NCBI GenBank assembly: GCA_040285855.1
Contig: JAUFOQ010000004.1
Span: 62,001 to 126,000 of the forward strand
Length of the DNA stretch: 64,000 bases
Source: Eukaryota sp. GEM-RC1
Taxonomy: Eukaryota
Direction of reading: 5' to 3'
Shown: piece after piece, positions 14,001 through 64,000 of the stretch
Position numbering within the stretch: the first letter of the stretch is position 1
Layout of the letters: each line of letters starts with the position of its first letter
Made by a program: the position numbers and the translations under genes
Notes under the pieces: generated by a model
Told to the model about the DNA's origin: nothing
What the model saw: the letters and a program-made list of their open reading frames with translations, nothing else
Databases searched by the model: none

Positions 14001-14612
14001 GCTATCCAACTTACCATTGGAAAAGTCTTTTGGACCACTGCCAAGGGAGTTACTCGTCAAGGACTTACTACCAATTGGCTTGACCATGCAAAGATTGATT
14101 CAAAGATTGCAATCTCTGTGCATTCCTCTCCATTGGTACCTCCAACTGATCTCTCAAAGCCTATCCTCATGTCCTGCATGGGATCTGGTTTTGCTCCTTT
14201 CAGAGGTTTCCTCCAAGATCGTGAAGTAGAAAGAGATGTTGAAGGTAATCAGACTGGAAAGATGTTGTTGTTCTTTGGTTGTAGAAGACCTGATGAAGAT
14301 TGGATTCATGAAGATGAAATGAAACAATGGGAAGAATCAGGTTTAACTGAATTATCTTTGGCTTTCTCCAGAGTTTCTGGTAAGAAAGTGTATATTACTC
14401 ATCGTGCTGCTGAACGTTTAGAAGATTTGTGGGAGCTTCTCGGTGTTCAAGGGGGTGGTTTCTACTACTGTGGTGGTATCGGTCCTGATCGTCAATTAAG
14501 AAACAGCATTCGCGAATCGTTTATTAGAATTGGAGGTTTGACTGAAAAGGCTGCTGACAAGAAGTTGGATAAGATGGAACATGATGGTTTGTTGGTTCTG
14601 GAAGCTTGGTAA
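11080..14612 (+). CDS. hydA: [FeFe]-hydrogenase fused to flavodoxin + FAD/NAD(P)H-binding (CysJ/CPR-like) domains; join(11080..11241,11271..14612), 1167 aa
   Basis: [2Fe-2S] PTMCYH..GRCGVC..C and two [4Fe-4S] motifs (CVDCGRCATAC, CINCGQCTAFCP). H-cluster motifs FTSCCPAW, MPCTAKKHE, EVMSCPGGCICGGGQ and small-subunit RKSHENP..LLHTHY. Flavodoxin YATQTGNS/STFGQGE, FAD-binding PRLYSIASS, NADPH-domain GSGFAPFRGF/LFFGCR/AFSR, and a terminal Trp. Confidence 0.95.
11242..11270 (+). other. 29-nt spliceosomal intron
   Basis: GTTTGT...CTAATTGCAG; removal restores CYHG|RLKALGRC. Confidence 0.9.
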
Positions 14613-22200: not shown

Positions 22201-24230
22201 ATTTCGGATTCAAATTCCCGAGTTTTCTTTTCCAATACAGAAATCTTCTGTTTGTAATTGTTTGATTCATGATTGAAATTCCTCTCCGAATCAGCCATTT
22301 CAAACCTTATTCGTTCAAGTTCAGCAGCATATTCAGCTTTAGACTTTTGTTCCTTTTCCACTTGTAATTTTAAATTATTAATTAATTCAATTTTTTCCTT
22401 TTGATTGTGAGAATTTTCCTTGTTTGAAGACTGTAAAAGGTCTGAAATTGATTGGAAAGCAGCTTCCGAATTCTCCAAAGCTGATTGAGATCGATTGAGC
22501 TCAGCTTCTAGATCCGAGATTCTTCTCGACAAAGCTTCTTTCTGACTGTCAAAAGAAGCAATCAACTCGTGATTCTGGTCTGTACACGTGGAATAATCTT
22601 CCTTCACGTCATCAAGTTCCTTTTCTAGTAATCTTTTCTCCTCTTCCAATTCTTCAACTTGTTCTTCTAGTAATTCTGCATGGTTGAGAGTCTCCGTAAG
22701 TCGTTCTGAGAGAGATGAAACTTCAAATTCTTTGGTAGATTTGATTTCTGACAGGGATTTCTGGCTTTCCTCGAGTGAAACTTCCAAATTATAAATCTTT
22801 TGGGATAAAATCTTTTTTAAATTGGTAAAGGACTGGTGGATAGCAAGTTTTTCTTTGTTTAAACTAGACAACGTATCGTTTAATTGAGAGTTTTCATCTA
22901 AATATTCCTGTAAATTCTTTTCTAATTGTGAGATTTCAGAATCCTTGGTTTCCCGAAGGTTAGCAATCAACTCCTTGAGTGAGGCAACTTCCTCCTGTAA
23001 ACGTGATTCTGATTGTTGGCTGGTGACGTGTACAAGATCAACTTCAGATTTGTACTGTTCAAATTGGAAAATTAAATCTTGATTTTCTGACTCGACTTGT
23101 TTCTTTGAGAATCGTTCAGAGTCAAGAGAATTCTCAAGACCGGAAATAGTTTGATTGAGCTCAACTTTTTCTTCGTTTAGTGAGTCGATTGTTGATTGAA
23201 GATCGTTGATTTGAGATGTATAAGACTGGCAATCATTATCTGATTGAAGTCGTAACCCTTGAATAGTTAGATTCAACTCCTTGATCTCTTCTTGCAACTG
23301 ATCACGTGTTCTAATTTCCTTTTCTAAATCATTGGTTAAATTTTCAATTTTTTGATCTGAATCAAGTTCTTTTTCTTCAAATTCCATAGACTGATGAGAA
23401 ACAAAAGCTTCCAAATCTGAAATTTTAGTCAATAACTGATGAATTCGATCAGATGACGAGGACTTCTCCCTTGAGGAAAACTCAAACTTCTTCTTAAAGT
23501 TCTCTCGTTCAGTTGCTAATTCAGTTCTTAAATTCTGACTTCTCTTGACTTCCAGTTCTAGTTTCTGATTGAGTTTCATGACCTCTTTACTTTTCATATC
23601 AATCTCACTTCGAAGTTCTGATGTCATTTGAGAAATCCCTTCATTCAACGACAGTTTCTCCCCATTAGCTGCTCTTAAATGTTCGTGAGCCTGTTGGAGT
23701 TCCTCTTGGAGAGATTCGATCTGTTTGTTGTAATCTTCAGCTGAATCATGAAGAGAGGATTGGAGGGAGGAGATTTGGGATGAAAGCTTCTGGTTTTCCA
23801 AAGTAAGATGCTTTTTAGTGGAAATTAAGGCCTCTAACTCAGTGGATATCATGTCTTTAGAAGAGCATTGTTGGTTGGAGAGTTGAGAGAGTTCAGCTTG
23901 GAGTTGGTGATTGAGAGATTTGAGTTCAGAGATCTCAACATCCTTGATAGAGTTTTGATGCTGTTGGTCTTGAAGGATGTCTTGCTTTTCTTGTTCAAGA
24001 AGTTCTATAATAGATGTGAGTTCTTCAATTTCCTCAATGTATCCAGATTCAACCAGGTTTGAAGGTGGAGCTGGTGGAGCAGTTTTGGGTGGATTCCAAG
24101 CAGGTGATTGGAGAGAAGAAGGACTTGATAACGGAGTTTGAGGGGAAGATTCATTAAGTATATGTGAGGGCTTCCGACCACGAGTGGCAAGACCCTCAAG
24201 TTGATCAGAAATGTCCCTCCATGAAGACAT
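19202..24230 (-). CDS. Giant coiled-coil protein (~1670 aa), two homopolymer frameshifts
   Basis: Continuous heptad-rich E/K/L/Q/S sequence. Adding one base to each T5 run (21015-21019 and 19628-19632) joins the three ORFs. Confidence 0.8.
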
Positions 24231-24691
24231 CTGATTTGTTGGTGCGAAAAGTCGGTTTTAGTCTTTTTCCAACAATTTTTCAGATCAAATTACACTCTTC
24301 TAACCGCAACAATATGGAGTCACAACAATAATTCCATGTATATACCTCATGATTGATTGTTTTAAGGACAATTTTACTGTTTTCTTCTATTAGATTTGAT
24401 TTTGATTTTATTTAAGTGGTTGTGCTAAATGTACAACACATGTCTTAAAGGCGCAACATCTATTAGTTTCTCTTTGAAGATCTATTAGTACCCAAAAGAA
24501 TTAGATTTAAAGATGAGAAAACGAAGACAAATTAGCTTGGAACTACTAGGATTAACAATCCACATCAAACAAAACTAAGTTGATGAATAGAAAACATCAT
24601 CATGTAGCTTAGAAGACAATTCTCAACGTCAGAACAATATCAGACTAACAATATCCAAGAAAAGCCAATCGCTAAAAAGCAAACAAGGACC

Positions 24692-32539: not shown

Positions 32540-35029
32540 ATGGTTCTTGGAATCGACTTAGGTTCTAAACAATTTATTGTTTCTGCTGTCGGCCGAGGCG
32601 GTGTTGATGTTGTTCTTGACGGTTCAGCCCTTCGTACATCAGCGTATGAATGACTGTTCAATGCTCTTACTTCAGCAACATGATCGCTTTTTCTGATCGT
32701 GAGCGAGTTTGGGGTAACCCTGCTGCTACTCAAAGACGCTCTAATATAAAACGCACCGTTTGTGGTATTACTAGACTTTTGGGTCGTCGCACCACTGACG
32801 AAGGCTTTGAATATGAACGTTCTTTCCATCCTTACCCTCTTGTTGAAACTGACGATCACAAAGTTGCCGTTAAGATCAATTCTCGTGGAGAAACCCACAC
32901 CTACTTACCCGAAACTATCCTCGCCATGCATTTAAACCAAATCAAGAGAATGGCACATGATTCTGGTAAAAATACCACTGACGTTTGTGTTACTGTCCCT
33001 GTTTACTTCAATGACGAGCAACGCCATCTTGTCAAAGCTGCTTGTCAAATTGCCGGCCTCAACTGCCTCCGTGTCATGAGTGAAACTACCGCTGCTGCCC
33101 TCACTTACACCTTAAAGAAACATGAACAACTTCCCGAAGCCTCTGATAAAGAAGGAGCTCAGCACCTGGTCTTTGCTGACGTTGGTCATGCTGACACCCA
33201 AATGTGCCTTGTGAAGCTATCCAAGGGTTACTGCCAGATAGTATCCGTTGCATCTGACGAATTCCTTGGAGGAAGAGACTTTGATGCTTTGCTGATGAAG
33301 CACTTTGCTGAAGACTTCTTCAAAAAACTGGTCTCAATGTCTTTGAGAACCCTAAAGCAGTGCTCCGTCTTTCTACTGAAGCTGATCGTATCAAAAGATC
33401 CTCTCCGCAAATGCTGACGTGTCAGTACACATTGAAGCTTTAATGGAAGATACTGACTACAACTCCTCATTTAACAGAGCTGACCTCGAGGCCGTCTCCC
33501 AGCCTCTTCTCACTCGAATCCAATCTCTATGTGCTTCCCTCCTCCCCTCTGACTTCAACTCTACTATCAATGGAGTTGTTGGACTTGGAGGTGCTTCCCG
33601 TATCCCCAGTGTTGCTTCAATTCTAGCTACTTCCTTTGGTCACGAGTCTGTCCTTAGAACTCTCAATCCTGAGGAAGATATCTCCACTGGTGCTGCCTAT
33701 CAAGCGGCAATGCTCTCCCCAATGTTCAAGGTCCGTGACGTCACCGTGATTGACCTCGGAGTGCCTAAAACCATTACCTGTGAATATCCAACTGCCAGCG
33801 ATGAGCTCCATCGAGTTGATCTCTTCCCTGCTCATTGTCAAGTACCCTTAACTCGTAAGATTAACTTAGTCAGACGGCCAGAACCTTTTAATGTTGTGTT
33901 CTCTTATCCAGATCACCATGTTGCCACGTGGACAATTGGGGGATTCCCTGATCATTTGTCTAAGTCTGAGGACTATAAGATTAAATTACAGGCCAAAGTA
34001 TCAGGAGATTTGCTGCTTGAGCCAAGTAAAACTTATCTTTCTGAGACTGTCATGGTTGATGTTGAAGTTCCAGTTCAAGAAGAAAAGACAGAGACTCCTG
34101 CTGAGTCACCTGAAGCTGAAACTTCCCCTGAAATGCCTGAGAAGAAGCTAGATGCTGAGGAAGTCCCCACTCCAATGGAAGGAGAAGAACCAGAAACAAA
34201 CGTAGAAGAGACTACCAAGGAGAAACAACCAGAAAAGGTGGAAAAAAAGACCAAGATTGTTCAACAAAAGAAGGTGGTCCAACATCGTTTGATAGTTTCT
34301 CCTATTGCTGGTTTTGTTGTCCCTCAAGAAATAATTTCTAATGGAATTAAGTTTGAAGAGGAATTAATGAAGAAAGATTTAGAGTATATCGAGGCTACTG
34401 AAGCTAAGGTACAGTTGGAGTCCTTTGTTTATGGCGCAAGATCAGACCTTTCTACTTCTCTGTATGAGTTTATTGATAGAGGGGAAGCTGAAGTTCTTAC
34501 TTCTAAGCTTAATTCTTTGGAAGATTGGTTATATGATGATGGTTTTGACTGTCCAAAAACAGTTTACCAAGAGAAGCTTGCTCACATCAGAGCTCCAGTA
34601 GATCAAGCAAAGTTTAGGTTAGATGAATGGCACTCACGAACTCCTGCTCTCGAATCTCTCAAACATTCTATTGAGAAGTACACAGAACTTGTTGGTAAAA
34701 AGGACACTCTGGAAGAGTATAGTCATTTGGAAGCTTCAGATTGGAAAGGAATTGAAAAGGAAATTAAGTCTGCATCGAAATCTCTGTCAAAGTATATCTC
34801 GTCGCTTTCTTCCTTGTCAAAGTTACAGAATCCTCCAGTCTTATCAGCAGATGTTACTAAGAGAATGTCTGAATTTGAAACTGCAGTAGGGAAGATTCTA
34901 CACAAACCGAAACCAGAACCCAAGAAAGAAGAAGAGAAACCAGAGAAGGAGCCAGTTAAGACTGAAGAGAAGACAGAAGAGCCAATAGAGGAAGAATCGA
35001 AAATGGAGGGCGATGAACAGCAGAGTTAG
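32540..35029 (+). CDS. HSP110: Hsp110/Sse1 (Hsp70 superfamily); intron 32644-32675, two homopolymer frameshifts
   Basis: MVLGIDLG, VTVPVYF..EQR, GLNCLRVMSETTAAALTY, LGGRDFD, GGASRIP, acidic loop, LESFVY, EDWLYDDG. Extra A at 33322-33327 and at 33393-33396 restores KKTGLNV..RIKKILSAN. Confidence 0.92.
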
Positions 35030-35259
35030 TTTATAATTTGTTTATTGAATTTATTAAATATAGGATGTTTTGGATTTCTCTCTTTTAGTTTGTCGGAATA
35101 GACAATGGTCTCGACTAATCAGTCAACGTGTACAAAGTCAAATAGCGACTTGAAATCTGGATCCGTTCTTTGAATTTTTGACACAATTAACTAAATTTTT
35201 GGAATAACTACTAGTATACTCATTAGATTTTTGAAAGAAACACTACCTAGACTACTACA

Positions 35260-40107: not shown

Positions 40108-42325
40108 TCATTCCCTTTCTCCTTCCGAATACTCTACAACGGGTACCAACTCCTCAACCATTGAATCCTCCTCAACATCTTTCAAAACGAACACAGGAAC
40201 AACTTTTCCAATAGTCATTAATATTCCCAAAAGAACGATTCCACAAATACCAATAGACAACCATGGATTAAGCCCCATCATAGTTGGTGTATAACCAAAC
40301 AAAATGACAACACCTCCCACTAACAAAGCATACGGCGTCTGGGTCTTGATATGCAGAAGTAGGTCACATCTTGCAGCCAACGAAGCTGGGGTAAGAAGTG
40401 AGAGAAAGTGCACACACCAATGATTGTAGTATCTCCCAAGATTGAAACGTGATTTCTACAGTTAGATATTTAAAATATTCATACCCGAAAACAGCCCCAC
40501 TAAGAACAGATGCTATCATCGCCTTAAGAACTCTTTCATCACCAGGGCTCGAAGCCACTGCAAGGGGAAGCACAAGGGGAATCAACAACGAAAGCGTACC
40601 CCATGCAGTACCTGTAGAAACAGCCACAATAGCAGAAGTAATAAAGACAGCAACAACCAACAAAAGACTAGGAAAACCCTCAGGAATCATAGATACAAGC
40701 CAAGAAGCTGTCCCAAGTACTCTTGCTGCTCCACCCAGACTCCAAGCAAGAAGGATGATCACAATTGAAGGGCATAGGGACTTGAAACCAGCCATGAAAG
40801 CATTCATCGATTGACCGAGCGTAGCAATCTTTTGAGAGACATTGAGAATGATGGACAAGATGACTCCAACAATTGCACCATTCAAAAGGGCATCAAATAC
40901 TTGAGCATTCCCAAATATTGAAGAAATTGAATAATCTAAGGAGTCCAGGAGAAGCTGTAATCTATCTACTTCAGCGGAAACGTCCCCTGAGTCAGCAATC
41001 TCAATCAAAATAGATAGCTCATCCTTCTGATCAGAAATAGACTCGTATCCACTGTATATCATGATTGAAATCACTGACAGAACAGTAACAATAATAGGCA
41101 GGAGTGCATTAACCGCTCTCAAAGGTTTATTAAGATTAGGCTTCATCTCTTTCTCCTCATGATCCTCAATAGTCTCCTTCGGTTCGTCCTCCTTGCTTCC
41201 TTCAGCTTTTTTTTTCCTCATCAGTTTTCTGTTGATCTTCATCTGACACAGCTAAAGACCCTCTGTACTTCATCTCTTCCACATACATTGGGCCGAAATC
41301 CCTTCGTGTTGCAATGTTTAACAATACAAATGCAATGGTAACAAGAGGATAGAAACTAAAAGGAATGGATTTAAGAAACAAAATGAAAGGATCGTAATCA
41401 AGATCTAGATTGATTACTTCAGCTCTAATCAACGACACTTGAAACCCAATCCACGACGTGATAATGGCAACACTCGAGATTGGAGCAGCTAAGGAATCTA
41501 GAAGAAAGGAAAGCTTTGCTGGGGATACTCGTAGTTTTTCAAGGACCGGTCTGATTGCAAGCCCAGTGAGAAGAACCTAGAATAAGAAATTTTAAAAATT
41601 TGACACACATTTGAAAACTCATCGATAAAGACCGTACAAACACAGCAACACAGCCCGATCATTCCTTTGGTAGAAGTCTTCGCGACTTTTGAAATTAACC
41701 TAGCTAAACCCATGCTTCCTCCTGAACGACTAACAACTCCGATAAGACCACCCAAAACAATGAAGAAAAGAATAAGTTTAGCATGACCTACATCAATGAG
41801 AGCATAGACCAAGTATTCGGTCATTGTTTTGAACAGAGCAGTGATTGGATTGAAGTTCCAAATGAAGAGGGAAGCAACAAAAAGGCCAATGAAAAGTGAA
41901 GGGATAACTTGCTTGGTAACTATCGCAGTGACAATGATGAGGATCTGTGGAAGAATGGTGAAGAATCCAGGGAGTGTGTTGATTTGAAATGAGTGGTATG
42001 AGTTTGGACAAGAGGTACATGATAAAGAAAGACGGTGACGGCCAAGAGAATCTAAGAGAATGTCTGAAATGGAACCAGATTGAATACGTTCATCAGTTAG
42101 AGTGACATTAACGTCAGAATAGACTCGATCGTCTAATGTTACAGCAAAGCGAACAATAGTGTCTTCAAAATCAGCGTAGTCAGAAGTTTTGAGAGCAAAC
42201 TTGAAGTGGATAGAGAAAGGAACATTGGATGTAGAGACCGGAGGAACAGAAACAGACTTAAACAATACATCATGTGAAGCTGCTACTTGTAACAAATAAA
42301 AGACTGCAAGAAGCAGCAGTTTCAT
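40108..42325 (-). CDS. NhaC-family Na+/H+ antiporter-like transporter with signal peptide and extracellular N-terminal domain
   Basis: LGGLIGVVSRSGG, FIDEFSN, RVSPAKLSFLLDSLAAP, STGTAWGT, GAVFGNHVSILGDTTI, HIKTQTPYA. Introns at 41577-41608, 40456-40484 and 40386-40417. One extra base in the T9 run at 41207-41215. Confidence 0.85.
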
Positions 42326-42885
42326 AGTCAACAAGAGGAAATAGTCCAATTCAAGTGTTGGGGTGGTTGGAAGTCAAGAGCCACGTCATTTTGATTCATC
42401 ACTTTAACCAAATTACTAATGTAATACTTTGACTGGAAAAAGGCTTTAGTGTGCAATGAAACATCAAAAGTACTGGTAATTGCTTCCAATCGGGACTGTT
42501 AGAACTCCTAAACTACATGCAACAAGTGTTGATTCAGTATTTCCATTGTTTCAACAAGTGTTTCCATTGTCTCAATGTGGTACTGGTTCACTCTCGCCTA
42601 CAGGTTTTTGGGGATTCGAATGTAAATTGATTTACTTCACACCAATATCGATAAGTGACATTAAATGTGCAAAAAAAACAACCAGCATTTTGCACCACCC
42701 CGTCAAATGTATTGGAATCGCAACAAGATGGCTTGTTTGAACATGATGAACATGTTCGAGCATTGGATGAATGGTAGTGATGAGAAAGTAGAGTATTTGT
42801 GTAGAAATTAGCCTTATTTTTGTTTGCCGGTGAAACCCCGCCATATTTGGTTAAGTCCACATAACTTGAATCATTTAAAACAGTT

Positions 42886-44156
42886 TTATTCTTCTACCAA
42901 TTCATTTTGCACTACAAACTTAAATCCATCAATATAACCAATATTCCAACGACTATCTTTGACTGAACCCTCATAAGGAACATAAACAGTGTGAACAAGA
43001 ACATTATCTTGGTATATCTTAACGTAGCATTGAGATCCAACAAGAGGCATCGGCTGTCTACCGCGTTGCTTAACATAAACAGGTGAATTCCGTGTGTCGT
43101 GATTAGTGATTGTGATTGATTGCCAGGCGTACTCTCTGTCAATTGCCCAAATACCTACAGTATCATCGACTTCACAGCGATACATTGGTTGAAGATGACA
43201 GACTTCACACACATTATAGAGGTTCATATAAACGATGGAATGTTTGATAGGCAATATCGGTCCATTGAAGAATCCAATTAACCAATCGCCACTTCTCTTC
43301 TTTAATTTTAGATCAACAACTAGTTCATTGGGAACTCTGATGCTGGTTGACAATGGCTGGTAGTAAACAGGATCAACAGAGATGGTGTATGTTCCAGGAA
43401 CAACTCCTTTAAAAGAGTAACGACCGTCACTTGAAGAAGTTGTTGTTTGAGTAGAGGTTTCACCATCTAATTTAATGGTAATGTTTCCAATAGGAAAAGA
43501 AGTGTTCAACTCCATGAGGCTTCCATTAACAGTGAAATTGGTGGGTGGCTTGGGGCCAGGACAATTGTAAGCATGGGTATCAAATAGAGGATCGGAGTAA
43601 TCGAAGTGGACAGGCTTCATACCATATATATCAACTTGCTGCAATAAGCAAACTAGAAAAACATACGACAACGTTATCAGCCCTGTGGAGGGTGAAACGC
43701 AAGAGATCATCATCACCAAAAGAATTGAAGTGAACAAACCATGAATGGGAGTAGTTCTGATAATCTGCTCTCCACAAAGAGACTGAAATGCCTCTGATCT
43801 CAGTCTCAAACAGAAAGCGAGCTTCCCTAGGAATTACAGATGGGAAGATGGGATTTACTGAAGGTTCTATATCACAATGATACGTTCCATGATCAGGTTT
43901 GATGATGTAAGATGATCTATCTGAATCCAAATAATGGAAAATCTGAATGACTAGGGTAATGTAAGTAAACATGAAACAAACCGTCTGACGATTCAGATCG
44001 AGCTCGCTGGTGGGGCAAATCTAGAAGGTATTTGAAGCTGTTCTTCCCAAAGTAGGGATCGGTTACGACCACAGTAGCAGACCAGGACAGAGGCAAACTG
44101 GGAAAACATGTGGTGACTGTTACGATAGTCAAGATCAGAGCAATAGCATGGAACAT
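42886..44156 (-). CDS. Secreted protein: ependymin/LolA-like N-domain (tentative) + carboxypeptidase-regulatory/CnaB-like beta-sandwich; copy 1
   Basis: Signal peptide; introns 43951-43981 (31 nt) and 43639-43666 (28 nt) join three ORFs. TTTSSSDGRYSFKGVVPGTYTISV motif. A paralog starts at 62831. Confidence 0.72.
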
Positions 44157-45608
44157 GTGCAACAATCAATTTTGAAACTCAGCCTACACTCCAAAAAATA
44201 CACAACTATGCTGTATAACAGAAACTAGGTCGTGTATAGTGGTTCTCTATCTTAATTGGGTAGTAAAGATTGGTGTAGTATGAAAGGATCTTACTGTAAC
44301 TTTTCGTGAATCTCTGATTCTTCTTTTCATAGTTTTGCAAAAGAAAGCGAGAAACTGGACTCAACAGATTTTTATTCGTCATGACCACTTCTGGCGTTCA
44401 GTTCGGCATCCTTCGGCTCCATCAGTGGTTCCATTAGAGACGGAACAATCTATAAGGACTCCGTCTTTGCCAAAATGCTCTCAGACTCAGGACTCATGGA
44501 ATAACATGGCTACGAAACCTATCTCCGCTATGAGAAAGAGAAACAGCATTATATTCCTTGATGTGACTCCACAGGAATCTTTTGACAGAATTAATTAAAC
44601 AAGAGAATTAAACGAGATTTTGAGTCCAGTGAGAGTATTTCCAGAGCCTCTAAGATGTATATCATGTGTTTGTCGAGTCATTCCAGTTATTTTTGAAGAT
44701 ATTGCTTGAATATAATCTTAATTTCAACAGCAGACGACAGCTTTTTATGATAAATAAACCAACAAACTATTGCTAAACACTAAATCATCAGCAAATAGCA
44801 ATAATCTCTCACATATCTGCTAAATGGATGGATGAGAGAAGAAGAGAACTAGTGTTAAGGGAGAGGGCGATATAAGAGCGAGAAAGGTCAAGGACGGACC
44901 TGAAAGCACCAATATAGGAAAGGGGAAAGGCTACAACTTCAAAACCAGCAGTTACAGACATCATCAGGGGAGATGTTCATAAGAAGGTCTTCCATTTCAA
45001 GACCATCAACAAGGGACAACTTTATAACACTGTCAAGGAGCTCCAGGGGTTTGTTCCATACAATGTAAACAGATGATGACGGATCTTTATTGTTTTGTGA
45101 AATAAAAGCTATGACTGACGTGCATCTACTGATGAGACTAGTGGGTTATCATTGTTTATCAAGCAGGAGAGAAAGGGTTTCAAGTACACAATGAGAAATC
45201 TGACATCATTCATGATGTTTTAGTGAACAAATAAGAGCTAGGAATGAAGATTCATGAATGTAAAGTAGGAGAGAAACGCCACGATGGAATCATCCCACAG
45301 AATCAAGGGGAGAAAGTCAGTCAGTCCCAAATTCCACTAGCAGGGATTGTATACTGTAGCTACCATATACAAAGAAGTTGCCACTAAGTCAAAGTTTGAA
45401 TTAAGATGATTAAGATGACCCATCGTAAATCTTATTCATTCATCTAGCGAGGCCATTGGGATCATACAAACAATTCTGAGAACAACCACCTCTAGTCTAC
45501 TGTACTTATTTACCAAAAGATTCTAATCATTGATGTAAAATATTTTTCTGAAAGTAACCTGTAGTTGAAATACAATAAAATCCACAATATTTCATAAATT
45601 TCTTGAAC

Positions 45609-47407
45609 ATGACTACCACGACCTCCACGGTCACGTGTTCACTTGCCAAGTTTTTTGACCCGCCAGCTCGGGCAGTGATGAACAGGCAATTTCGGTACCT
45701 TCGAGACGTTGCTGTTCATTCAACTTTACTGGCCCGGGTGTTTGTGCTCCAGCACCCCCACTTAGCACGCTGGTTGACTGACCAGCGTTTCTGGTACCAG
45801 TGCTTTGGGTTCGTTGCTCACTCTGAGCCGAAAGTAAACCGCCCCTTTGAGAACGACAATGGAGTGTACACTGCACTGCATCTGTCGTCGAGTCTTCCGC
45901 CAGTATCCATTTGGCCGTTCCCCCCTCTTGGCCGACACAAACCGACACGCTGGTGTTACTCACAACTCTTGAGTGATAGGTCACGACAGTTGTCTGAAGC
46001 TTTTCAACAACTGATGGCCGATGGTCCAGTCAGTTGGAAGCTGAACTTCTTCCGGACCGCTGCTGTATTCCTCGACTGCCCGACCCCCAAGGGATACGCT
46101 TCTGCTGTCGTACGTGGTGCTCAACCTGGAGCATCACTGCAGCAATGGTGGAATGCTCATCACCAGCAAACTCTGGCCACCTTTAATCACTTAGTCGGGG
46201 ATGTTGTCCTGTTCAATAATCTATTGACAGAACGGTCTGTTGCCCTCAATGAAACGAACACCTCATTTTTGTTCGCAGCTGGACTGAACCTGTTGTCTGC
46301 TCTTGAGGATGCTGCGCCAGATTGTATGCGCCGCCATGCTCTAGTTCCAATGGCCAGCTATGCTCCAGTGTTTGTATCATTCTCTCAGGAAGTGGAGAGA
46401 CACTTCACAGAGTTCAACTTCTCAAGGACTCTCAAAAGTAACCCACTGAAAACGTTTAGAAAACGCCCCCGTTTCCAGACTTACACCCTGGCCTCTGATG
46501 GTGTAAGTTTGAGGATAATTTTTCCACAAAGCCGAAAAAAACAAGGAACCGCCCTACCAAGGAGCAGTTTGAGTCAAGGAGGGCAAGTGGCTCCGAAGAC
46601 TTCAAGGTTAAGTCTCGAAAGAGAAAGTGTAACCTACAGAAGAAAGTGGCTCCGTCACGACGACGTGCGAGAACAGCTGATTTCGAACCTCCTCCTGATG
46701 AAGATTGGTTATGGTGTGCAATTGATCCCAACCACAGTAACCTATGTGGTTGGTCTATTGGAACCAACACTGACTATTTATTGGACTCTGGTATTACACT
46801 GGCACCAAAAGCCAAGGCTATCAATACTGTTATGTTTGGTGCTTTGAGCAACTCTACGTCGAACACCTATTCCGTTCAGAACATGTACCTGTATCTGCTC
46901 GAGATATCGACCACTATTGTTGATCAAAATATGAGTAAGAACAGTCTAGAACGGCGTTTATTAAATGGGAACAGGCCCAACCTACGGAGAAACAAGTTCG
47001 ATTTCTTCATAAGAAAACAGAAACGATTTGATTTATTTGCTCAAAATTTGAAAAATATGGCACAAGGAAGCCAAATCAGAGTTTGGTTTGGGACAGGAGG
47101 TGCTAGCCCATCTAGGCAGCAAGTGAAGTCTCCAAGAAAGGGATTCCTTCAATATCTCAAAAGATTCTTTCCCGTTATTATGGGCGATGAATACTTCACT
47201 TCCGCAAAAACTAACTGCTGTAAAGTGAGGCATCAGTTGATATATCATGAAGTAGATGGAATAAGAAGAGTGAATCACGCCATATTTCGATGTCCAACAT
47301 GTGCTCAGGTTTGGTCAAGAGATATTTCTGCCTCCAGAAATCAACTTGAGATCGCTATAGAGGGTTACTTATTTGGAACTAGGCCTGAAGCTTTCCAACG
47401 TACTTAA
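45609..47407 (+). CDS. Fanzor1-like (TnpB-family) RNA-guided endonuclease, ~599 aa if the single frameshift near 46519-46541 is corrected
   Basis: N-terminal VTCSLAKF...FWYQCF and SDGVSLRIIF. RuvC-I AIDPN, FGTGG, RuvC-II GDEYFTS, Zn-finger-like NCC...CPTC, RuvC-III WSRDISASRN, terminal RPEAFQR. The 5' half is visibly GC-richer than the host. Confidence 0.85.
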
Positions 47408-47575
47408 TTATCTATGTATTGGCCGATGAAATTCAAGTTACCTTGAATGGAGGCCGTAATGTGGTGCTTCGGCAGAAAAGGGATGTATATGAAGAAGCTT
47501 TCTTTGAAAGTGTAAAGTATGCATTTCTTGGAAAATCCACTGTACTGTACACGTCCAGATGTTTTAACTTTAACA
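47408..47575 (+). ncRNA. Candidate Fanzor omegaRNA scaffold (boundaries approximate)
   Basis: Dense stems directly after the stop: ATTCAAG-TTAC-CTTGAAT (47431-47448) within GGCC/GGCC, TGC-TTCG-GCA (47465-47474), and GGATGTATAT/GTACACGTCC (47481-47490/47547-47556) enclosing CTTTC-TTT-GAAAG and TTTC-TTG-GAAA. Confidence 0.55.
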
Positions 47576-47590
47576 TTTTTAATCTAAACA

Positions 47591-49781
47591 ATGAATCTAG
47601 GTGATATATCAGGCACAACAGACACTCATCTTTATGCTCAAGTCCCTCTAGTCAACAGCTCTGTCACTAAGACTGAAGCTACTGAACAGGTAGGTATCAT
47701 TCTGGAACAATACCTAATTCATGCTCGTAACCTCCTGTCCAAGTATAACCCACCCACAATGCAGGATTCCACTCTCGAACTCTATGCTGATCTTCTTTTG
47801 GATCATGTACGAAAAGAGATCATCACTGAACTGATAAACCAGGTCACAGTGCTCCACTCAGTATCTCCTTTGCTTTCTGTCTTCGAACCTACCATTAGAG
47901 GCTCAATCCCCAAATCCCCAACTTCTAACTTCCTTCTCTCCCTCACCCACCTCAACTCATTCTCAGTCACACAACCCCTTTCATTTCTTCCCATTCACTT
48001 TGGTCACTTGGCTGTCCTTACTTCTAAAGGAGATCGTCTTCTTCTTCATCAGGGAGAGATTGTATCAATGACTAAGGGGGGATCGAATTAGGGCTAAAAT
48101 TCCGTCAATTAAACCTATTCAAAAAAAGAAGTTATCTTCAAAAAAGAAAGTTTCCACATTGAGTCTTGATAAAAAATCAAAAAGTAGCACAGTGCCCGTC
48201 TTAATGCTGAGGAAAAATTTAAATATTAATGATATTTCATGGATAGAGGGAGAATTGAATGATTTTGTTTCTGTAATGGACGTTGTTTCTAAAATGTCCT
48301 CAGAATTTGGTGTTTTTAGAAAGTTTTTACCTTTTTCTACTAATTTAGCAGTGTTTTGTTACGCTCATTGCGTGTTTTTTTCAGATCACTTGTCTCTTTT
48401 GTCTTCCTTGAATTCAACAGATTTTTCTGAGTTTACTTCTAAATGTTGTCGATTGTTTCCACCGGAAAATTTAATTTTTCTAAACATTTCAGTTACAGAA
48501 CAAGTTCTTGATGGTATCAATCACACTTTGTTTTTGACCCTTTGCCAACATCACGTCACCACTGATCTCTTCATTGTAATCTATCACAAACAATCTCAGA
48601 AAGTCATCCTCAATCAACCTTTAACTGACCATTATGATCAATTAGTTGATTTTGACCCTCAATCATGGGAGCAATCAATTAGATTACCATCAATCGATGA
48701 TTTTTCCGTTTTTGACCTTGAGTTCCAACCACTAAAACAGCAAGTGTTGATCACTTTAATCAATACAGAGAAGGAACTAATGACTCGATTGTCTCTCAAC
48801 GTGTCTGATTACTATCAATCATTGGTATACCAGCCATTAAATTTTGAATCCATGAGTAAAGACTTCCTGAGCCTGCATTTAAAAAATAAGAATCGTAAAT
48901 TAAATCCTTTTTTATTCCCCTATTGCAGAAATGTTGGTCTCACCAAACACCATTTGTTGTTTCTTTCTTCTGAATCTTTAGTTAACGGGGATATTGTTAA
49001 CATTTATTTAATTGATGAGAATTCTCTCCTTTTGGTGATATATTCTTTAGTTAGAGAGAATATTCATTTTCTTGATTTACGAATTGATTTAGCAACGTCG
49101 TTTTATTCTTATCCATTTGTCAAACTTGTACCTGTTTTGCCAATATTTGAAATTCAAGGCGATTTTTTGATTGTCTTTCATTATTGGTTTCTCTATTTCG
49201 TTTGTCTGTCAAATTTAACTGTATTCCAAGTAGTTTCAATACTTGCTAATCCCCACATTGATAACCCTGAAATTTTAGAAACAGTTGATTATTTAAATAT
49301 TTCTCAGCCAAGTTTCCAACCTCCTTCAACGTCTATGCCCATCATCACTATATCCAAAGAGTTGTTGTTATACATTGCTGCTCATTCATATAACGAAGTT
49401 GTTTGTTTTAAAATTGATGTTAAAAACAAAGAAGAGAGTAAAAGAAGAGACCGGTCCAGGTTCAACTTTAGAACTAAATTCTTCAATCCATGTCATTTTA
49501 TTCATGGTAATCGACCAATTCCTGAAGTTCCAAAGACTAACCAACAACTACCTCTACCTCCCACGGACTTTCCACTTTCTAATACAGTTAACAGGTTCAA
49601 TGCTCACCCTCTCTTTATAACCTCAATTGTTAGAGAAATCACAGAGCAAGCAGAGGCGTTGGTGGACAAAAGACAGACACCAAGAAACACTGCTAGATCG
49701 AGATCAGAATTGGAGACGATTCTTTGTGAGGTCAACAGCAGACTTCCAGCAATTGCGTTAGACATTTTAAACAACGTTTAG
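47591..49781 (+). CDS. Hypothetical protein (one gene; frameshift in the G6 run at 48076-48081)
   Basis: Removing one G joins the 166-aa and 540-aa ORFs through an open linker. No family recognised. Confidence 0.6.
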
Positions 49782-51045: not shown

Positions 51046-51772
51046 CTACGGTTCTTTCTCTCCAGTAAACAATTCATGGGTATCCATGACTGGCATTTGT
51101 TCCCAGCCATCATGTCGCACTATGTAACATCTATTGAAACCACCACTATAGGAATCACGATGTACCGCATGAGTGATGGCTCTCCTGCCCAATTCCACTG
51201 CTTCTGCTTCAGTCATATCAAACTTGTACTCTGAATCCAGTATACCATAAGCATAAGTCGAACCAGAACCAACAGCGAACAAATTTCCTCTTATTCGCTG
51301 GCCTTCGGAGTCAACATAGAATAGACCTGGTCCAGAGTGATCAAAACCTGCAACCATGGTTCCCACAGATAGACCGTATCCCTTGTATTGGTATAACATG
51401 TTTGATAGCATTTTAGAAGCAGCACTTACTGTCACTCGCTCTCCGTGTTCAAGTTCCCAGAGACGACATCGTTGGGAAAGAACACGTTCCCAAAAGGCAC
51501 AATCAGCAGCACCACCAGCCATTGTTCCAAGGAGATATGGATTGATTTCTAAGACTTTTTGACAGATTGAGAACTGATGTAAGGACCTGGTATAAGATAT
51601 TGTGTTGCAGACAGAGCATACCCTGTGTGGATCGACTATCTACAGAAATACATACTCCTCCCTGAAAGACGAAACCAAGAGTAGTGGTACCATGTGAGTA
51701 ATCTAAGCCAGATCGTGGTTCTTTGAAGGTTGAAGGATCGAAAGAAGGACCAGTTGAAGAGATGGTTTGCAT
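51046..51772 (-). CDS. PSMB5: 20S proteasome subunit beta5; intron 51587-51621, homopolymer frameshift at 51556-51560
   Basis: [50 protein letters not shown]...[10 protein letters not shown]...RDSYSGG. Confidence 0.95.
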
Positions 51773-51809: not shown

Positions 51810-52462
51810 ATGGACGTCTTTCAAGAAGTTAAAACTGGAACCACTGTTATGGGTGTACAATTCAAAGGGGGAGTAGTGCTTGGTGCTGACTCTCGTACTT
51901 CTATGGGCTCTTATGTCGCCAATCGTGTCTCAGATAAAATCTCTCCTGTATCAGACAAGATTATGATCTGCAGGTCAGGATCGGCTGCAGATACTCAAGC
52001 GATCTCTGACTATGTTCAGTACTTTCTCGAGAATTACTCAATGGAAACAGGACAACCTCCCAGTGTACATAACGCCGCTCACATGGCACGCAACATTTGC
52101 TATGAATACAAAGATCATCTATCTGCAGCTCTAATTGTTGGAGGTATGGACTCCACAGGACCCTCGCTTTACTCTATACCACTTGGTGGAGCTCTTGTGA
52201 AACAGCCAATAGCTATTGGAGGTTCAGGATCTTCCTTTATCTATGGATACGTGGACGCTAACTTCAGAGAAGACATGAGTGAGGAAGAAGCCATTGAGTT
52301 TGTGAAGAACTCTGTTTCTTTGGCAATGACCAGAGATGGAAGTAGTGGAGGTTTGTTTTATTTGTTTTATTCATTTTAGGTATAATAAGAATCGCTATTA
52401 TTACCAGTGATCGTACAGAACGGTTATTGTTTGCAGGTAGAGATGTCCCTAGATTTCAATAG
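51810..52462 (+). CDS. PSMB6: 20S proteasome subunit beta1; join(51810..52350,52380..52462)
   Basis: EVKTG|TTVMGVQFKGGVVLGADSRTSMGSYVANRVSDKI, CRSGSAADTQ, GGSGSSFIYG, RDGSSGG|IIR. 29-nt intron. Confidence 0.95.
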
Positions 52463-52535: not shown

Positions 52536-55500
52536 TCAACTTCTACCACTTCTTCTTGTGATTCCAATGTCATACAGAAGTGGTGGCTTTGAAATATTGT
52601 TTTGCCATGATTGAAACTCGTCATAGATTGCAGTTCGATAATTACAGTTTGATTCTCGAATAAAGCTCATCATGTTAGAAACAGCTTCCAAATCAGTTTT
52701 TCCATACGAAAGTCTAATTTTTAAATTTTCAATTGTTTTGGTCTTAAAACACTCCAACCCAGCATCGAGCATTAAGTTAACCAAGGAAATAATTAAATTG
52801 GAATGTTGTCTGACAGCTAGGTAACCTTTCACAATCAACGACACAAAGAGCTCAAACGTAGGTGAATCAACACGACCACCCATCAAATCAAACATTTCCC
52901 TAGATAATTTAAAAGGGGCTGTTTCAAATCTGAAATCCCCACCAGGAGAAACATCGAAAATAAAACCAAAATCAATATGAATAACATGGCCGTCTTTATC
53001 AAACATAATATTCCCATTATGTCGATCTTTAACTGCCAAAATAAACGTTACCAATGAGTAAGCCGCCATAGACTTTACAAACTCTAATTGAGCTGAAGCA
53101 AATCGTTCAGAAGATTTATCTCCAAATTGAGATTCAAACCAATCAATCAGACCTCCATCAGAATCACCTCCAATCTGATCGCGTGACTTGCTGTTAGCGA
53201 TGACTTCAATGACGCCATCATTAGTAGAAGTTGGAATTGTCAGATATGGAAGAAGGAAGAGGTCTAAACCGGTAGAAATTAATATTTGTTTCATTTGAAA
53301 TATTAATTGCAGAGCAAGAGAATCTTGTCGAACATCATCACTTGACTTGAAAATCCAAGAAACTTCTGATTTTTGAGCTGTTGTAAACGTCAACAGGATT
53401 GGTACCTTAGCATGTGACTTCAAACAAAGACATTTGTCCAAAACAATGCCCTTTGCTGAAACTCCATCGGGAAGAAGACCATTAATCGTCATTTGAGTTA
53501 ACTTCTGTCTTAAAACAGGCAATCTATCAGATTTAGCAACTTCTTTAAGTTCAAGAGACAGTAAAGTGAAGCTATCAATAAAAGACATCATAGTAGCAAC
53601 TGTAGCGAGAGTAGAAGAAGAAACTTGAGATAATATTGACTGTAATATGACGTCAGCATTTGATTGACCTTCAGTCGTGATTGCAGTTTGATTGGTTTGT
53701 TTTGACAGTCGAATGTTAGCACCACAAGAGCGGAGAAGGAAAGTTAAATTTAATAGAACTTGTTGGTTGTTTTGACAAATTGATCCAAATACAGTAGCAA
53801 AACTTGATTGAATTTCCGGAGGACAGAAATTTAAAATAAATTGAAATATTTGAGCAATATACGATATGACAACATCAGGTTGTTGATTTTTGAGGGCAAA
53901 TGAAAGATGATGTAGTACATCAAGAGCAAAATTTGGGAAATTTTGAAACTTTAAATAAATTTGTTTCAATGCACTCAAGGTAGAAATAAGCTGGGTGATG
54001 GAGAAATTCCTACAAACAAAGCTACACTGTCCAATCAATTCAATAATAACTGAATCATGTCGTAAATATTCAAAATTTTCCAAAATAAAAACTAAATACT
54101 CTGGTTCGACAACAAAAAGAGACGATGTAAACTCATAATTAGTCAAAAAGTCAACAAGATTCTTCTTAAAAAGCTCAGAATGACTTATTCGAATCAAGAA
54201 GAAAGGCATTGAAGCATTAACTGAAACCAAAACTTCTAATATTTTTAAAATATCTTTTGTAATCACAAATTCCTGGCCCTTCAACATCGCATGTTCATCC
54301 GCGCACTGCAACTTGAAATGATTCAACATAAGTTGCACGGCAATATTCATAGCAGAAGCCTTTGTGACGGGTAATGAAGACGAAGAGAGAGACTTTCGAT
54401 TAGAAGTAGTAGAGGTGGTATTACAAAGAGGGTCTTTGAAGAAGGAAAAAATAGTCTCGAGAGAGGAAATGCAGGAAGACACGTGCCAGGAAGGGAAAGA
54501 GTTGACGTTATATGATGTCATTGATTGAGCTAAATTGACTGTGATGAACTCAATCAATGCATCAAACGACAAGAAAAGCTCATGACTTGCCAGAATGTAG
54601 GACATGGATCCACACAACATAGCAAGGTATCTCAGGGAGAACTCAATATCAGAAGAAGTAAAGTCGGGGGCAACTGAAAGAATCAATTTTAATAGAAGCG
54701 TGACTTGATTGGTTTCGAAAAAGGAAGAATATTCCTTAAGACATGTATTTAAAAAATCCAGGAAAATTGTATGAACATTTAAATTGAAAGGAGGTGGAAG
54801 TGTAGCAACTGCTTGACGGGACATTTCTATCACAGGTTTAGGAACTTTTGGAAATTTAAAATACTTACAATTATTGATAAAAGACTGATATCCAACCAAT
54901 AAAGCGCAAAGTAAATCAGAGATCCGTTTAGAATTATATCTTAAAGTTTGTAAAGCAATATATCTAGTAAAAAGGTGAAATATATCGTCAGTGAGGACAA
55001 ACAAAAATTGAAAATTTCGATTGAATTACAATCAACCTCGACAGAAAAACACTTGGTTAACTTGGCAAAATCATCTGTAGAAAACAAAATACGACTTTGC
55101 CATGGAAAATTAGAAATTTCTCAATTAGATTGATTGATGAATATCCACTAGAAACCGATGGACACAAAATTTTCATAAATGTATTTAAAAAACTAATATT
55201 TCCCGTCATTGAAACTGGAAATGAAGGATTTTTAAATAAGTTGAAAACAGAAGGCGCCAAATTTGAAAATTTCGAAACAATTGTAAGTAATTTTTCAGAA
55301 AGAACAGGTGACAGGGGCAGATTGACTGTAGACCTTGTAGAATTAGCATTCCGAAACGGCAAATGAACAACTGATTGAGAAATAGAGATCGCTCTTTTTA
55401 ATTCTGAAAAAAGCGAAAAAATTGAATAATAAGACACACACCGGGAGCTGAACTTTGGCATCAGGGAAAGAAATCCGAGAACTTCAAGTGCGACGTTTGA

Positions 55501-57484
55501 TTTGAAATTGATTGCACTGGAAACGAGATCGATTAAAGAACAAAAGAGCTCAAATAGATCAGAAACAGGAAATAGGTCAAAATGAAACGTCATCAAACTA
55601 GCAGCTAGTAGACCACATAAAGAAGGAGAGAAATCTTGAACTAATTGGAAAAACCTATCAGAAGTAAAGAAAGATACGTTTTGAACAGATAGAAAGTTGA
55701 ATAGAATAACAAAAGAAGAAATCATGTCCAATTTTGAAATTGAAATTTTAGAATATTTGTCCCTTGATTGATTGGCTGTGGTTAAAGAGAACATATAATC
55801 AATAAAAGGCGAAGATACTGTAGATACATCACGATTACAAGTTGAAAACTGTGGAGTTGAAACTGATAATTCTTTGAGAAAATATATCAACAAATTTAAA
55901 GAATGTAGATCGTCATCACCAATATTGGAAATTGAAAGAAAGTAGAGCGACGACTGCAGATGAAAATCAGCCGAATTATGATTGATTGGACATGAGAATG
56001 ACTGTAGAGCAAACCAGAAATTAGCAAAACTTTTAAAATGATTGAGTACCATATCGGTCAAATAACGCCAAATATTAAAATACAAATTATGTAATTGTGC
56101 CACTTTCGATTTGAGTAAAGAATTAGTTAATATTACAATTACTGGAAGTAAAGACAATGATAAATTAATATTGTGATCAAAGCTCTTGTAGAATAAAGAC
56201 ATTGTTGTAGATAACAAGTACTGGCCCAACTCTAAATTTTGAAATTTTACGCAGCATGTTGCACTGTGGATCAAGATTATAGGTAGATAACAAAGAGATC
56301 CGGATGGGATGGATTTGAAGTCAAAATTTAAATTAATTAAAAAATCATCACAAACAGACAAATTTCCTGTTTTTAAGGAAATCATAGAAGTAAGAATTTC
56401 AAAAAAGAACTTCTTGTCCACAAAACTCAAAAAACACAATGAAATTAAATTTTTCCAAAATTTCAGACTAACTGCATTCACCTCAATTGATTGTGAATTA
56501 ATAGAGACAGTAAACCTGGAAAAAAGCAAAGAAAAACTTTTACTGATTATTGATTGAAGGTCAGAAGTAACTAATTGGAGGAATAAAGAAGAAGAGATCA
56601 ATATATCCATCAAATAGCCAATCAACTGTAGAGATTCGACTCTTTGAATTTTCTCAAATGAATACTGCACAATATCATGAATTGAACTATTGAATTTTTC
56701 AAAATACGGAGATTCTTCGGAATTATTTGAATAATCACGAATAAGAATATGAATTGTTTTCGTAAGATAATCCCAAAACTCAACAGAATGATCTGAAACA
56801 TCAATGATATTGAAGCATTTTTCAATGAACTTTGAAACTTCATTAAATAATTCAAAATGTTGGTGTGGTAAATCACAGCAACTGAACAAGTGACACACGT
56901 TGACCATCTGGTTGTTCGTCTCCAAAGAGAACAGAAAAGACAACAAGGCAGAGGCAGAGGTCGTATTCATTTGTCTAATTGAAGAGGGAAGAATTGAGGA
57001 GAGGGAATGTTTGACGTTAGAGGAAAAGGGACTGCGGTCAAAGAAGTTGAAGAAAACAGAAGAAAAGGAAGAAAAATGCTGAGGTGGAAAGAATTGCTGA
57101 CAAAAGAGAGACGTTGGAGATCAGAGAACAGAAAAGAACTGAAGAAGTGGATGATACATCAGAGATCAGTTGGAAATTAGCATCAAGATATTGAGGTGGT
57201 AAGAACTGTAGAGCAAGGGTCTGTACAAAGAGTTGTTCACTGTTGAGAAGTTGTGGGAGAATGTCTGGATCTGATAGAGCAAGATTGTGGAAGCATTTAG
57301 TGATGTAACATGGAACTTTCCAAGGTGAGTTAACAACAGTGTGTTGAAGAAGACTCAGGAAGGTTTTTCTTCGAGACAGAAAAGCATTAGAGTCCCTTAA
57401 ATGGCATAAATCTTGACGGAAAAGCTCAATAAGTCGAAGCCAGTAGAAGTCCATAACATTAACGAAATTATTCAGATTTATCAA
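52536..57484 (-). CDS. PI4KA: Phosphatidylinositol 4-kinase type III alpha (Stt4-like); N-terminal helical part split by frameshifts, start uncertain
   Basis: LKSHAKVP, IFKSSDDVRQDSLALQ, GVIEVI, SMAAYSLVTFILAVKDRHNGNIM, HIDFGF, FETAPFKL. The upstream ORFs 55057-56970 and 57038-57484 abut on the same strand. Confidence 0.8.
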
Positions 57485-57847
57485 TTCGAGATGTTGGCTT
57501 TCCCAGCGCTGTACAAAAATATTATTAAACTAAAACTAAGCATTGCTACTAAATGTAATATAACTTTTAAAAGATTGTTAAGTGCTGGTTTCAGTTTTAT
57601 CCAGTACATGAATCACTTTTAAAAGATTGTTTTTAACATGAAATGGAATCATGATTAGCGGAAACAAATGTTGAATAAGTACAAAAGAAGTAAATCAACC
57701 CATAAGCGACCACTAATGTGGATACTGTGCAAATCTTTAAGGAGAAGCAAAAGGACTGTCAACAAACACTGATAGATCAAAAGGATAAATATGAACATAT
57801 AGAATGAGATAACCCAACACAAGAAACAGAAAATCAACCCAGTATTG

Positions 57848-62830: not shown

Positions 62831-64000
62831 ATGTTCCTCTCCTTGGTCTGTTCTTGACTATCATAACAGTCACAACATGCTTTCCCCGTTTGCCTCTGTC
62901 CTGGTCTGCCACTGTGGTTGTAACTGATCCGTATTTCGGAGAGAGTAGTTTCAAGTACCTTCATGATTTGCCCCATGAACGAGCTCGTTCTGAATCGCTG
63001 TCCTCAGACAGTTTGTTTTATGTTTAATTACCTTTCCATAGTCATTCAGATTTTCCGTTACTCAGATTCAGATAGATCCTCATACATCATCAAACCTGTC
63101 CACGGAAAGGACCATTGTGTTGTAGCACCTGCAGTGAACCCGATCTTCCCATCTGTAATTCCGGATGAAGCTCGCTTTCTGTTCAAGACTGAGGTCACAG
63201 GCTTTCCAGTCTCTTTATGGAGAGCAGATTATCAGAACTACTCCCATTCATGGTTTGTTTACTTCAACTTATTCGGTGAGTATCAACTCATACGCTTCCT
63301 TCTCCACACAGATGTTAACGTCTTCGTATGTTTTTCCTCTTTAGCTTACCGCAGCAAGTTGATGTATACGATATGAAGCCTGTTCACTTCGATTACTCCG
63401 ATATTCTTTTTGATGCCCATGCTTACAATTGTCCTGGTCCCAAACCACCCACCAATTTCACTGTTACTGGAACCCTTTCGGATTTAAACACTTCTTTTCC
63501 TATTGGAAACATTACCATTAAATTAGATGGTAAAACCTCTACTCAAACAACAACTTCTTTAAGTGACGGTCGTTTCTCTTTTAAAGGAGTTGTTCCTGGA
63601 ACTCTACACCATTTCTGTTCATCCTGTCTACTACGAGCCATTGTCAACCAGGATCAAAGTTCCCAGTCAGTTAGTTGCTGACCTTAAATTAAAGAAGAGA
63701 AGTGGAGATTGGTTAATTGGATTCTTTAATGGACCAATATTGCCTGAAAAACATTCCAACCTGTACATGTATCTTTATGATATTTGTGAACTCTATTTTG
63801 CCAGCGTTTTGTATCAGTGTAAAGTTGGTGATACATTTGCGAAATATGCAGTTGCGAGAGACTACTCTTGGCAGTCAATCACAGTCACCAATCACGGCTT
63901 ATATCACGATAGGACATCACCTGTTTATGTTAAGCAATGGAAGAGACAGCCCGTCCCTTTTGTTGGATCTAAATGTTATGCCAAAATTTACAATGGTGAT
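62831..64000 (+). pseudogene. Paralog (copy 2) of the secreted protein at 42886-44156, frame-disrupted, runs off the window
   Basis: Colinear with copy 1 and has the same intron positions (63011-63041, 63326-63354). One-base frame breaks just after the ATG and near 63603. It could be an intact gene with assembly errors. Confidence 0.6.

Follow-up and report, generated by a model that had tools for sequence, protein, structure and literature searches.

The Fanzor1 enzymes of solved structure are the described systems that the locus considered here most closely resembles. SpuFz1 of Spizellomyces punctatus (PDB 8GKH and 9CEU-9CEZ) offers the best structural match, with GtFz1 of Guillardia theta and PpFz1 of Parasitella parasitica sharing the same two-lobed layout. 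A TDG-type motif in the WED domain has been described as a Fanzor feature and the placement of the RuvC-II Glu directly ahead of the zinc site as a Fanzor fingerprint (PMC10711439). According to PMC11423790, GtFz1 has an Asn at RuvC-III, where the present locus keeps an Asp, and PpFz1 contains a RuvC insertion of roughly 100 aa, for which the present protein is, judging by its length, too short. More distant are Fanzor2 (ApmFz2; 9B0L) and the TnpB of IS200/IS605 elements (8H1J), which share the RuvC and zinc/TNB domains and give far weaker matches. As to the elements that carry such genes, transposase-free Fanzor1 elements are described as common (PMC3627910; PMC10711439), and elements containing Fanzor1 only, some of these without terminal inverted repeats (TIRs), are known (PMC3627910).

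The locus lies on the + strand of the window, i.e., the whole 64-kb stretch of DNA. In the first frame, an ORF at positions 45609-46847 encodes 412 aa from its ATG, while the second frame, offset by -1 relative to the first, is open from stop to stop for 302 aa (46499-47407). Reading through both overlapping frames, with an X placed at the break, gives a single protein of 599 aa, as the initial annotation had proposed. The 5' part of the gene (45609-46520, first frame), encoding the helical REC region and WED strands, is identical in translation to residues 1-298 of the NCBI model P0019, and the 3' part (46523-47407) encodes a basic linker, RuvC, REC2, the zinc/TNB domain and the stop. Splicing of the locus at 46503-46531 reproduces that model (GEMRC1_008498) with no differences. 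The earlier description of the gene as GC-richer than its neighbours is true of the 5' half (45609-46502; 51.6%) but not of the 3' half (46532-47407), which at 42.2% is host-like, given values of 41.7-42.8% in four host ORFs. No second copy or end fragment of the gene was found elsewhere in the window.

All of the motifs previously named (SDG, AIDPN, DEYFTS, NCC, CPTC, RDISASRN and the RPEAFQRT terminus) were located. The SDG at 46494-46502 is the counterpart of the Fanzor1 TDG motif and aligns with the T/S-D/N-G of relatives in a 19-row alignment, in which the Gly is invariant. Likewise invariant in these 19 sequences are the three acidic residues of the presumed catalytic site, namely, the RuvC-I Asp of AIDPN (46724-46726), the RuvC-II Glu (47189-47191) and the RuvC-III Asp of RDISASRN (47321-47323), or D363, E518 and D562 in P0019 numbering. 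In the predicted model, D363 stands at the end of a strand (residues 358-364), E518 follows the strand preceding the zinc domain and D562 opens the last long helix (561-579), the same strand-loop-helix placement described for Fanzor (PMC11423790). The D-E-D triad can thus be considered intact, as first claimed, with its placement being that of a predicted model. As is typical of Fanzors, the conserved Glu directly precedes the zinc site, 9-10 residues ahead of the Cys pair. In IS200/IS605 TnpB, by contrast, about 50 residues separate the canonical Glu from the zinc finger, and a D-hydrophobic-G motif is found in place of D-P-N.

The candidate zinc-site residues (47216-47302) comprise four Cys, the first two being adjacent (NCC, 47213-47221), a His four residues on and a CxxC (CPTC, 47291-47302). 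This region matches PF07282 with an E-value of 1.6e-5 and a score of 25.4 bits, below the 26.3 cut-off. The first Cys pair, flagged early on as atypical, is really so. Yet it is a family trait and not decay: all listed Skoliomonas relatives have xxCC or xxCH, and several Fanzor1-like proteins of unrelated source also have xxCC.

Structure prediction was performed with AlphaFold2 on P0019, i.e., the spliced form, using an 85-row alignment, and yielded a model of mean pLDDT 88 and pTM 0.85; the 3' frame folded from its single sequence reached a pLDDT of only 36. When solved structures were compared with this model (Foldseek, VIA), the seven best matches were all Fanzor1, corresponding to SpuFz1, GtFz1 and PpFz1 (E 1e-13 to 5e-9; Z 17.4-19.1; rmsd 4.4-5.0; 456-512 residues aligned). 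SpuFz1 was matched over the whole length (Z 17.4-19.1; 503-506 residues; rmsd 4.7-4.9) despite 16-17% identity, and GtFz1 and PpFz1 over 456-512 residues (Z 17.8-18.7) at 12-13% identity. Cas12 proteins (Z no higher than 13.9), TnpB (Z 11.7) and Fanzor2 (E 3e-3; TM 0.23, against 9B0L) ranked below, and the serine recombinase that usually accompanies the compact TnpB-like fold in Fanzor2/IS607 elements was not found in the window. That the locus is instead a TnpB, a Fanzor2 or an unrelated RuvC protein was considered, given that solved Fanzors were not found by sequence search alone, that DPN replaces DPG and that a regular first CxxC is absent. Indeed, a sequence search of solved structures with the 3' frame returned no matches, and the sole match of the profile among them was LaTranC, limited to its zinc/RuvC-III stretch (E 0.006). 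Such a reading is nonetheless highly improbable and, as far as a predicted model permits, was refuted, in light of the full-length structural match to three Fanzor1 enzymes, far above Fanzor2 and TnpB, together with the Glu in the Fanzor position, the T/S-D/N-G motif and the 600-aa size. A chance pattern can be ruled out because 14 relatives were detected at E<=0.001 and because of the structural match to Fanzor1. As such, going by its predicted fold, the locus is a genuine member of Fanzor1, as initially proposed, from a host lineage so far unstudied.

In addition to its size, its D-E-D triad and the Glu before the zinc site, the locus shares with SpuFz1 a structured 3' flank whose first hairpin is 7 bp long, as judged by eye (in SpuFz1, a 7-bp SL1 is described in PMC11423790). 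It differs from SpuFz1 in its low identity, in the DPN motif, in having Cys-Cys and a His for the first CxxC and in a reading frame that is broken in the assembly. The RuvC-I motif keeps D-P but has Asn as its third residue, instead of the Gly of DPG, a form almost confined to Fanzors. DPN is also found in five relatives from outside Skoliomonas, and DPG in a second Skoliomonas subfamily, P0123 and P0126. Moreover, where other Fanzor1-like proteins present a basic helix following the RuvC-I strands, residues 389-412 of the locus are predicted to form a coil. For comparison with the pair of kinked helices that makes up REC2 in Fanzor1, helices are predicted here at residues 413-424, 436-444 and 447-475. 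Across the coil region, the median number of Lys and Arg residues is 3 in 23 Skoliomonas rows, as compared to 8.5 in 48 others. Judged from the aligned sequences and the predicted model, the DPN motif, the Cys-Cys with His and the Lys/Arg-poor coil are family traits, with the first two also being seen in some outside relatives.

The host, which had been taken to be an anaerobic protist, is just that, since GEM-RC1, together with TZLM1-RC and TZLM3-RCL, belongs to Skoliomonas, anaerobic metamonads of alkaline hypersaline lakes (PMC11316075). A search with the RuvC half retrieved 14 proteins at E<=0.001 among 968 candidates (best non-self match, 8e-65), all from these three genomes. In the search for other copies called for by the initial annotation, up to nine near-identical gene models on five contigs were found in GEM-RC1, a count that leaves out one cluster member of 56 aa, P0021, that bears no resemblance to the gene. 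Four GEM-RC1 models of equal length differ at 4-10 positions per 589 residues, and the copies are 98-99% alike. Related clusters have 17, 18, 24 and 28 members in TZLM1-RC and 10, 41, 14, 9 and 4 in TZLM3-RCL, although these are numbers of gene models, many of them fragments, and not of loci, with at most 15 being listed per cluster. Unbroken relatives of 592-663 aa, 35-49% identical to the protein, exist in both TZLM1-RC and TZLM3-RCL.

Among 1.84 billion representatives, 524 matched the profile at E<=0.001, and 150 of these were listed. Among the matches listed, those beyond Skoliomonas are proteins of 500-860 aa and fragments, and all 11 outside relatives whose clusters were checked come from metagenomes. 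Identity to such metagenomic Fanzor1-like proteins is about 15-22%. By protein-pattern scans, relatives were confirmed in none of 176 metagenome and none of 86 viral contig stretches, and shared-word searches for named relatives from outside Skoliomonas returned Skoliomonas only (21 of 21 and 13 of 13). In a quick 65-row tree, built without bootstrap and with its deep forks open, the 12 RuvC-bearing Skoliomonas rows form a branch of their own (SH-aLRT 91; 98 for the DPN subfamily) and lack a resolved sister group; both this tree and the 85-row folding alignment include the XPG nuclease P0250, which is not a Fanzor. Neighbours in language-model features were mostly Nucleocytoviricota clusters (score 0.98), and viral Fanzor1-like models reach a TM of about 0.6 against the model of the locus. 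Still, neither these giant-virus neighbours nor a tree with open deep forks indicates a viral donor.

Several other Skoliomonas Fanzor1 forms were seen along the way. In several models, a second subfamily, with DPG (a TZLM3-RCL cluster of 9; P0252, P0250, P0247, P0248 and P0123), follows an XPG/EXO1-type nuclease, to which it is fused in one model of 1323 aa, possibly reflecting a composite element carrying two nucleases. A motif ahead of the XPG/EXO1-type nuclease resembles a 2A ribosome-skipping peptide. In TZLM1-RC, one subfamily (P0002, P0023 and P0034) has an extra N-terminal Cys-x2-Cys-x4-His-x4-Cys knuckle ahead of the WED region, and P0011 is a truncated Fanzor1 modelled as a glutaminase fusion, which probably reflects either an artefact of the model or insertion next to a host gene.

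Previous mention of Fanzors in such hosts is scant. The PMC10711439 supplements tabulate one Fanzor HMM match, uncharacterised, in Carpediemonas membranifera, as well as three further metamonad pattern matches that, by eye, look unrelated, and the PMC10530073 supplements contain none of six metamonad names. In the open literature covered, no papers on metamonad Fanzors were found, although subscription papers and bioRxiv supplements could list others. Among the matches listed, Skoliomonas papers showed no Fanzor work in their titles or the start of their abstracts, and the listed entries of the Fanzor literature from 2024 and on frameshifting contained nothing on the Skoliomonas lineage or on recoding. 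The claim that the host lineage has no characterised Fanzor therefore stands in the sense of its being unstudied, but not in the sense of its being unrecorded, given the tabulated Carpediemonas membranifera match.

The possible activity of the gene, as raised in the initial annotation, depends, from what the sequences reveal, on a one-base break shared by all seven GEM-RC1 models that span the junction of the two frames. All seven are interrupted there: five use a 29-nt intron annotated by NCBI (46503-46531), one uses another junction and one continues in the first frame. More likely, the 29-nt segment encodes a conserved WED strand, as reading through gives up to 733 bits against the profile, compared to 702 for the spliced form. 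When scored by position of the break, the profile gave 733, 728 and 732 bits at 46518-46524, with the peak making the T5 run at 46519-46523 the best-fitting site of a -1 break, and 726-728 bits at an A7 run (46535-46541), an alternative site. As for other runs, protein models indicate that a T6 run at 45651 is in frame in all seven covering models and that a C6 run at 45920 fails in two of eight. Two other copies break at the C run and one apparently has a shorter A run, as deduced from protein. In the sister species, gene models present similar gaps in some copies and none in others.

Were the 29 nt a true intron, newly arisen within a coding strand, the product would be a 589-aa protein minus one WED strand, an inactive or altered Fanzor. 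The same junction is used in exactly that form by five NCBI models, the GTAAGT donor is perfect and 29-nt intron candidates occur in the host at 2706-2734, 63326-63354 and, by eye, 52351-52379, with a further candidate at 51579-51613 bringing the range to 29-35 nt. Nonetheless, such an intron is improbable. It would delete ten residues after the SDG, where 74 of 76 other rows keep at least ten, and splicing costs about 31 bits relative to the best read-through. Furthermore, in the model of the spliced form, pLDDT drops below 50 at residues 298-305, and from 214 to 324 no strand reaches a length of three residues. The acceptor is AAG, whereas the host candidates finish with TAG or CAG. A sixth GEM-RC1 model takes another junction, a seventh takes none, and comparable gaps in sister-species models are seen in only some copies.

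A little better than even is the chance that the break is an assembly error, reflecting loss of a base in the T run by nanopore sequencing. This is taken as the likeliest explanation because the nearby Hsp110 gene contains two one-base losses of its own. At 32650-35029, 13 kb away, this gene lacks one base at each of two A runs (near 33324 and 33395), a stretch of 73 nt corresponding to 25 residues of yeast Sse1. These losses speak for assembly errors left uncorrected. Also pointing to error are the location of the break in a homopolymer, the breaks at the C run and the apparently shorter A run of other copies, and the early nanopore data. The GEM-RC assembly is described as based on R9.4 nanopore reads, Albacore 2.1.3 and Canu and as Illumina-polished at 116x (PMC11316075). 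That polishing speaks against error, as do the interruption of seven of seven models, the GTAAGT donor and the host-type length of 29 nt. With all seven broken, far more than at the T6 and C6 runs of the gene, independent errors are inadequate and a context-specific error must be assumed.

Other genes of the window also appear split by -1 shifts when examined by eye, namely, those encoding a coiled-coil protein (19205-24257), a Na/H antiporter (40367-42373) and a PI4-kinase (52539-57529), all on the - strand and all shifted at short runs of A or T. At the junction in an ATG6-like gene, this -1 pattern does not, by eye, fit. Apparent split genes in the GEM-RC1 genome hence call for caution.

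Unlikely, albeit to be taken seriously, is a real inherited frameshift, in which the source element would have lost the base before multiplying, leaving truncated 412-aa proteins without RuvC as dead cargo moved in trans. The same site is broken in all seven spanning models of an Illumina-polished assembly, copies that are 98-99% alike require only one recent ancestor, and TnpB is reported to be dispensable for transposition (PMC3627910). Against such decay, the reading frame stays open for 295 codons past the break and the triad is intact in the six long models, a housekeeping gene of the same window has suffered a like one-base loss, and the break falls in a homopolymer.

Finally, programmed -1 ribosomal frameshifting could throttle production of the 599-aa nuclease. 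The A7 run (46535-46541) reads as a slippery heptamer, A AAA AAA, in register with the first frame, and 9 nt past the run, two crossed 5-bp stems (46551-46594) form a weak pseudoknot candidate, a pattern found, by criteria set after it was seen, in 18 of 2000 shuffles. The product would be exactly collinear with its relatives, and the break recurs in seven of seven models. Yet by these criteria, such stems occur at 248 of 9132 window positions (2.7%) and 70 of 1722 CDS positions (4.1%), and the sister-species relatives are in a single frame. Two copies (P0015 and P0017), moreover, carry a change that, by prediction, disrupts stem 1. Directly ahead of the A run, five residues also fit the relatives better in the second frame, which locates the base loss in the T run: among 9 matched rows, the second frame scored higher in 5 (one of them mis-matched), equal in 2 and lower in 2, with 3 rows unmatched. 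Programmed frameshifting is accordingly rated marginally below the intron, itself a poor prospect. Little likelihood is likewise accorded to the wider proposal of a genuine break in all GEM-RC1 copies, decoded by -1 frameshifting or a new intron, in a metamonad-specific compact Fanzor1 branch in which the basic REC2 helix has become a loop and the zinc site has been rebuilt. Returning to assembly error as the favored reading, the public gene models of the Skoliomonas Fanzor1 family are probably mis-spliced.

Downstream of the stop, positions 47418-47532 (115 nt, + strand) correspond to a candidate omegaRNA scaffold, with a predicted fold of -33.9 kcal/mol (z -3.2). None of 300 shuffles folded as low, the opposite strand reached -17.6 and three of 278 window tiles were as low. 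The fold comprises a 7-bp hairpin (47431-47448) enclosed by a stem of 4 bp, a small hairpin with UUCG and a long stem rich in G-U pairs (47478-47529). When the fold is extended, 47461-47476 pairs with 47540-47554, from which one may guess at a scaffold end near 47554. A Rfam scan gave only one weak snoRNA match (E 0.93), and a 26-nt pattern from the 3' flank had no matches in metagenome contigs. Elsewhere in the window, 115-nt tiles at 35191 and 63481 fold far below their shuffles (z -6.6 and -5.9).

The gene is likely carried in a transposon, insofar as this can be told from sequence. Since no inverted repeat of at least 8 bp was found between 45380-45608 and 47408-47600, it is the copy number that points to a transposon. 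Direct repeats across the flanks numbered five 8-mers (1.7 expected) and one 9-mer (45577/47532; 0.28 expected), and were too near chance to be taken as a target-site duplication (TSD). Position 47575, earlier offered as the element end, finds no support, as no ends were located. The reported absence of an adjacent transposase was borne out: no serine recombinase, TnpA or other transposase family was detected by Pfam among 109 open frames of the window, nor was a transposase found in 12 stop-through frames of 44105-45601. In this, the locus is like SfAV/SFav-1, MCi-2 and CMe-1A, in which Fanzor is the only gene, several copies exist and no transposase adjoins (PMC10711439; PMC3627910), but unlike SfAV-type elements, it presented none of their clear TIRs and TSDs. 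A stretch at 44340-44700, which by eye suggested a decayed DDE transposase, was rejected as such upon matching deoxynucleoside kinase (E 6e-4, under the cut-off). The interrupted frame at 44300-44700, with this weak kinase match, is probably an upstream host gene with short introns.

Taken together, it is somewhat probable that the locus represents one of several copies of a gene with a predicted Fanzor1 fold, likely the sole cargo of a non-autonomous DNA transposon, and that the break is an assembly error in a likely intact 599-aa gene. Directly supporting this are the Fanzor1-type motifs and predicted fold, the near-identical copies on five contigs, the unbroken relatives in sister species and the folding 3' flank. 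By analogy to characterised Fanzor1 enzymes (PMC11423790; PMC10711439; PMC13565253), the 3' end of the element would be transcribed into an omegaRNA, with the scaffold stopping at the element end and the last 14-15 nt, copied from flanking DNA, serving as guide. The Fanzor1 protein would recognise a TAM beside a sequence matching the guide, and the RuvC D-E-D site would cut the target. A transposase encoded elsewhere would excise the element in trans, leaving an empty site, which Fanzor1 would cut, such that repair from an occupied copy would restore the element.

The remainder of the window includes a Piwi domain of an Argonaute-family gene (3-893), a host RNA-silencing component that could act on Fanzor1 elements. 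At 11265-14612, a [FeFe]-hydrogenase, a flavodoxin and an FAD-binding reductase are fused in one frame of 1100 aa, and two related carboxypeptidase-regulatory-like genes of prealbumin fold (42886-43833, - strand; 63319-64000, + strand) are probably paralogues.

The general view of Fanzors is unchanged by the present locus, unless the break proves to be recoded. Still, few Fanzor1 enzymes have been tested, and the three Skoliomonas genomes, from anaerobes of soda lakes, hold a distinct branch that has expanded repeatedly. Its members measure about 600 aa, many of the copies are unbroken, the zinc site is of a variant form and the region that binds RNA and DNA is predicted to be altered. With so many recent copies, the ends, the TAM and the omegaRNA should be easy to define by DNA alignment. 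The Skoliomonas branch thus represents a ready source of new compact nucleases and a test of whether the basic helix after RuvC-I is dispensable.
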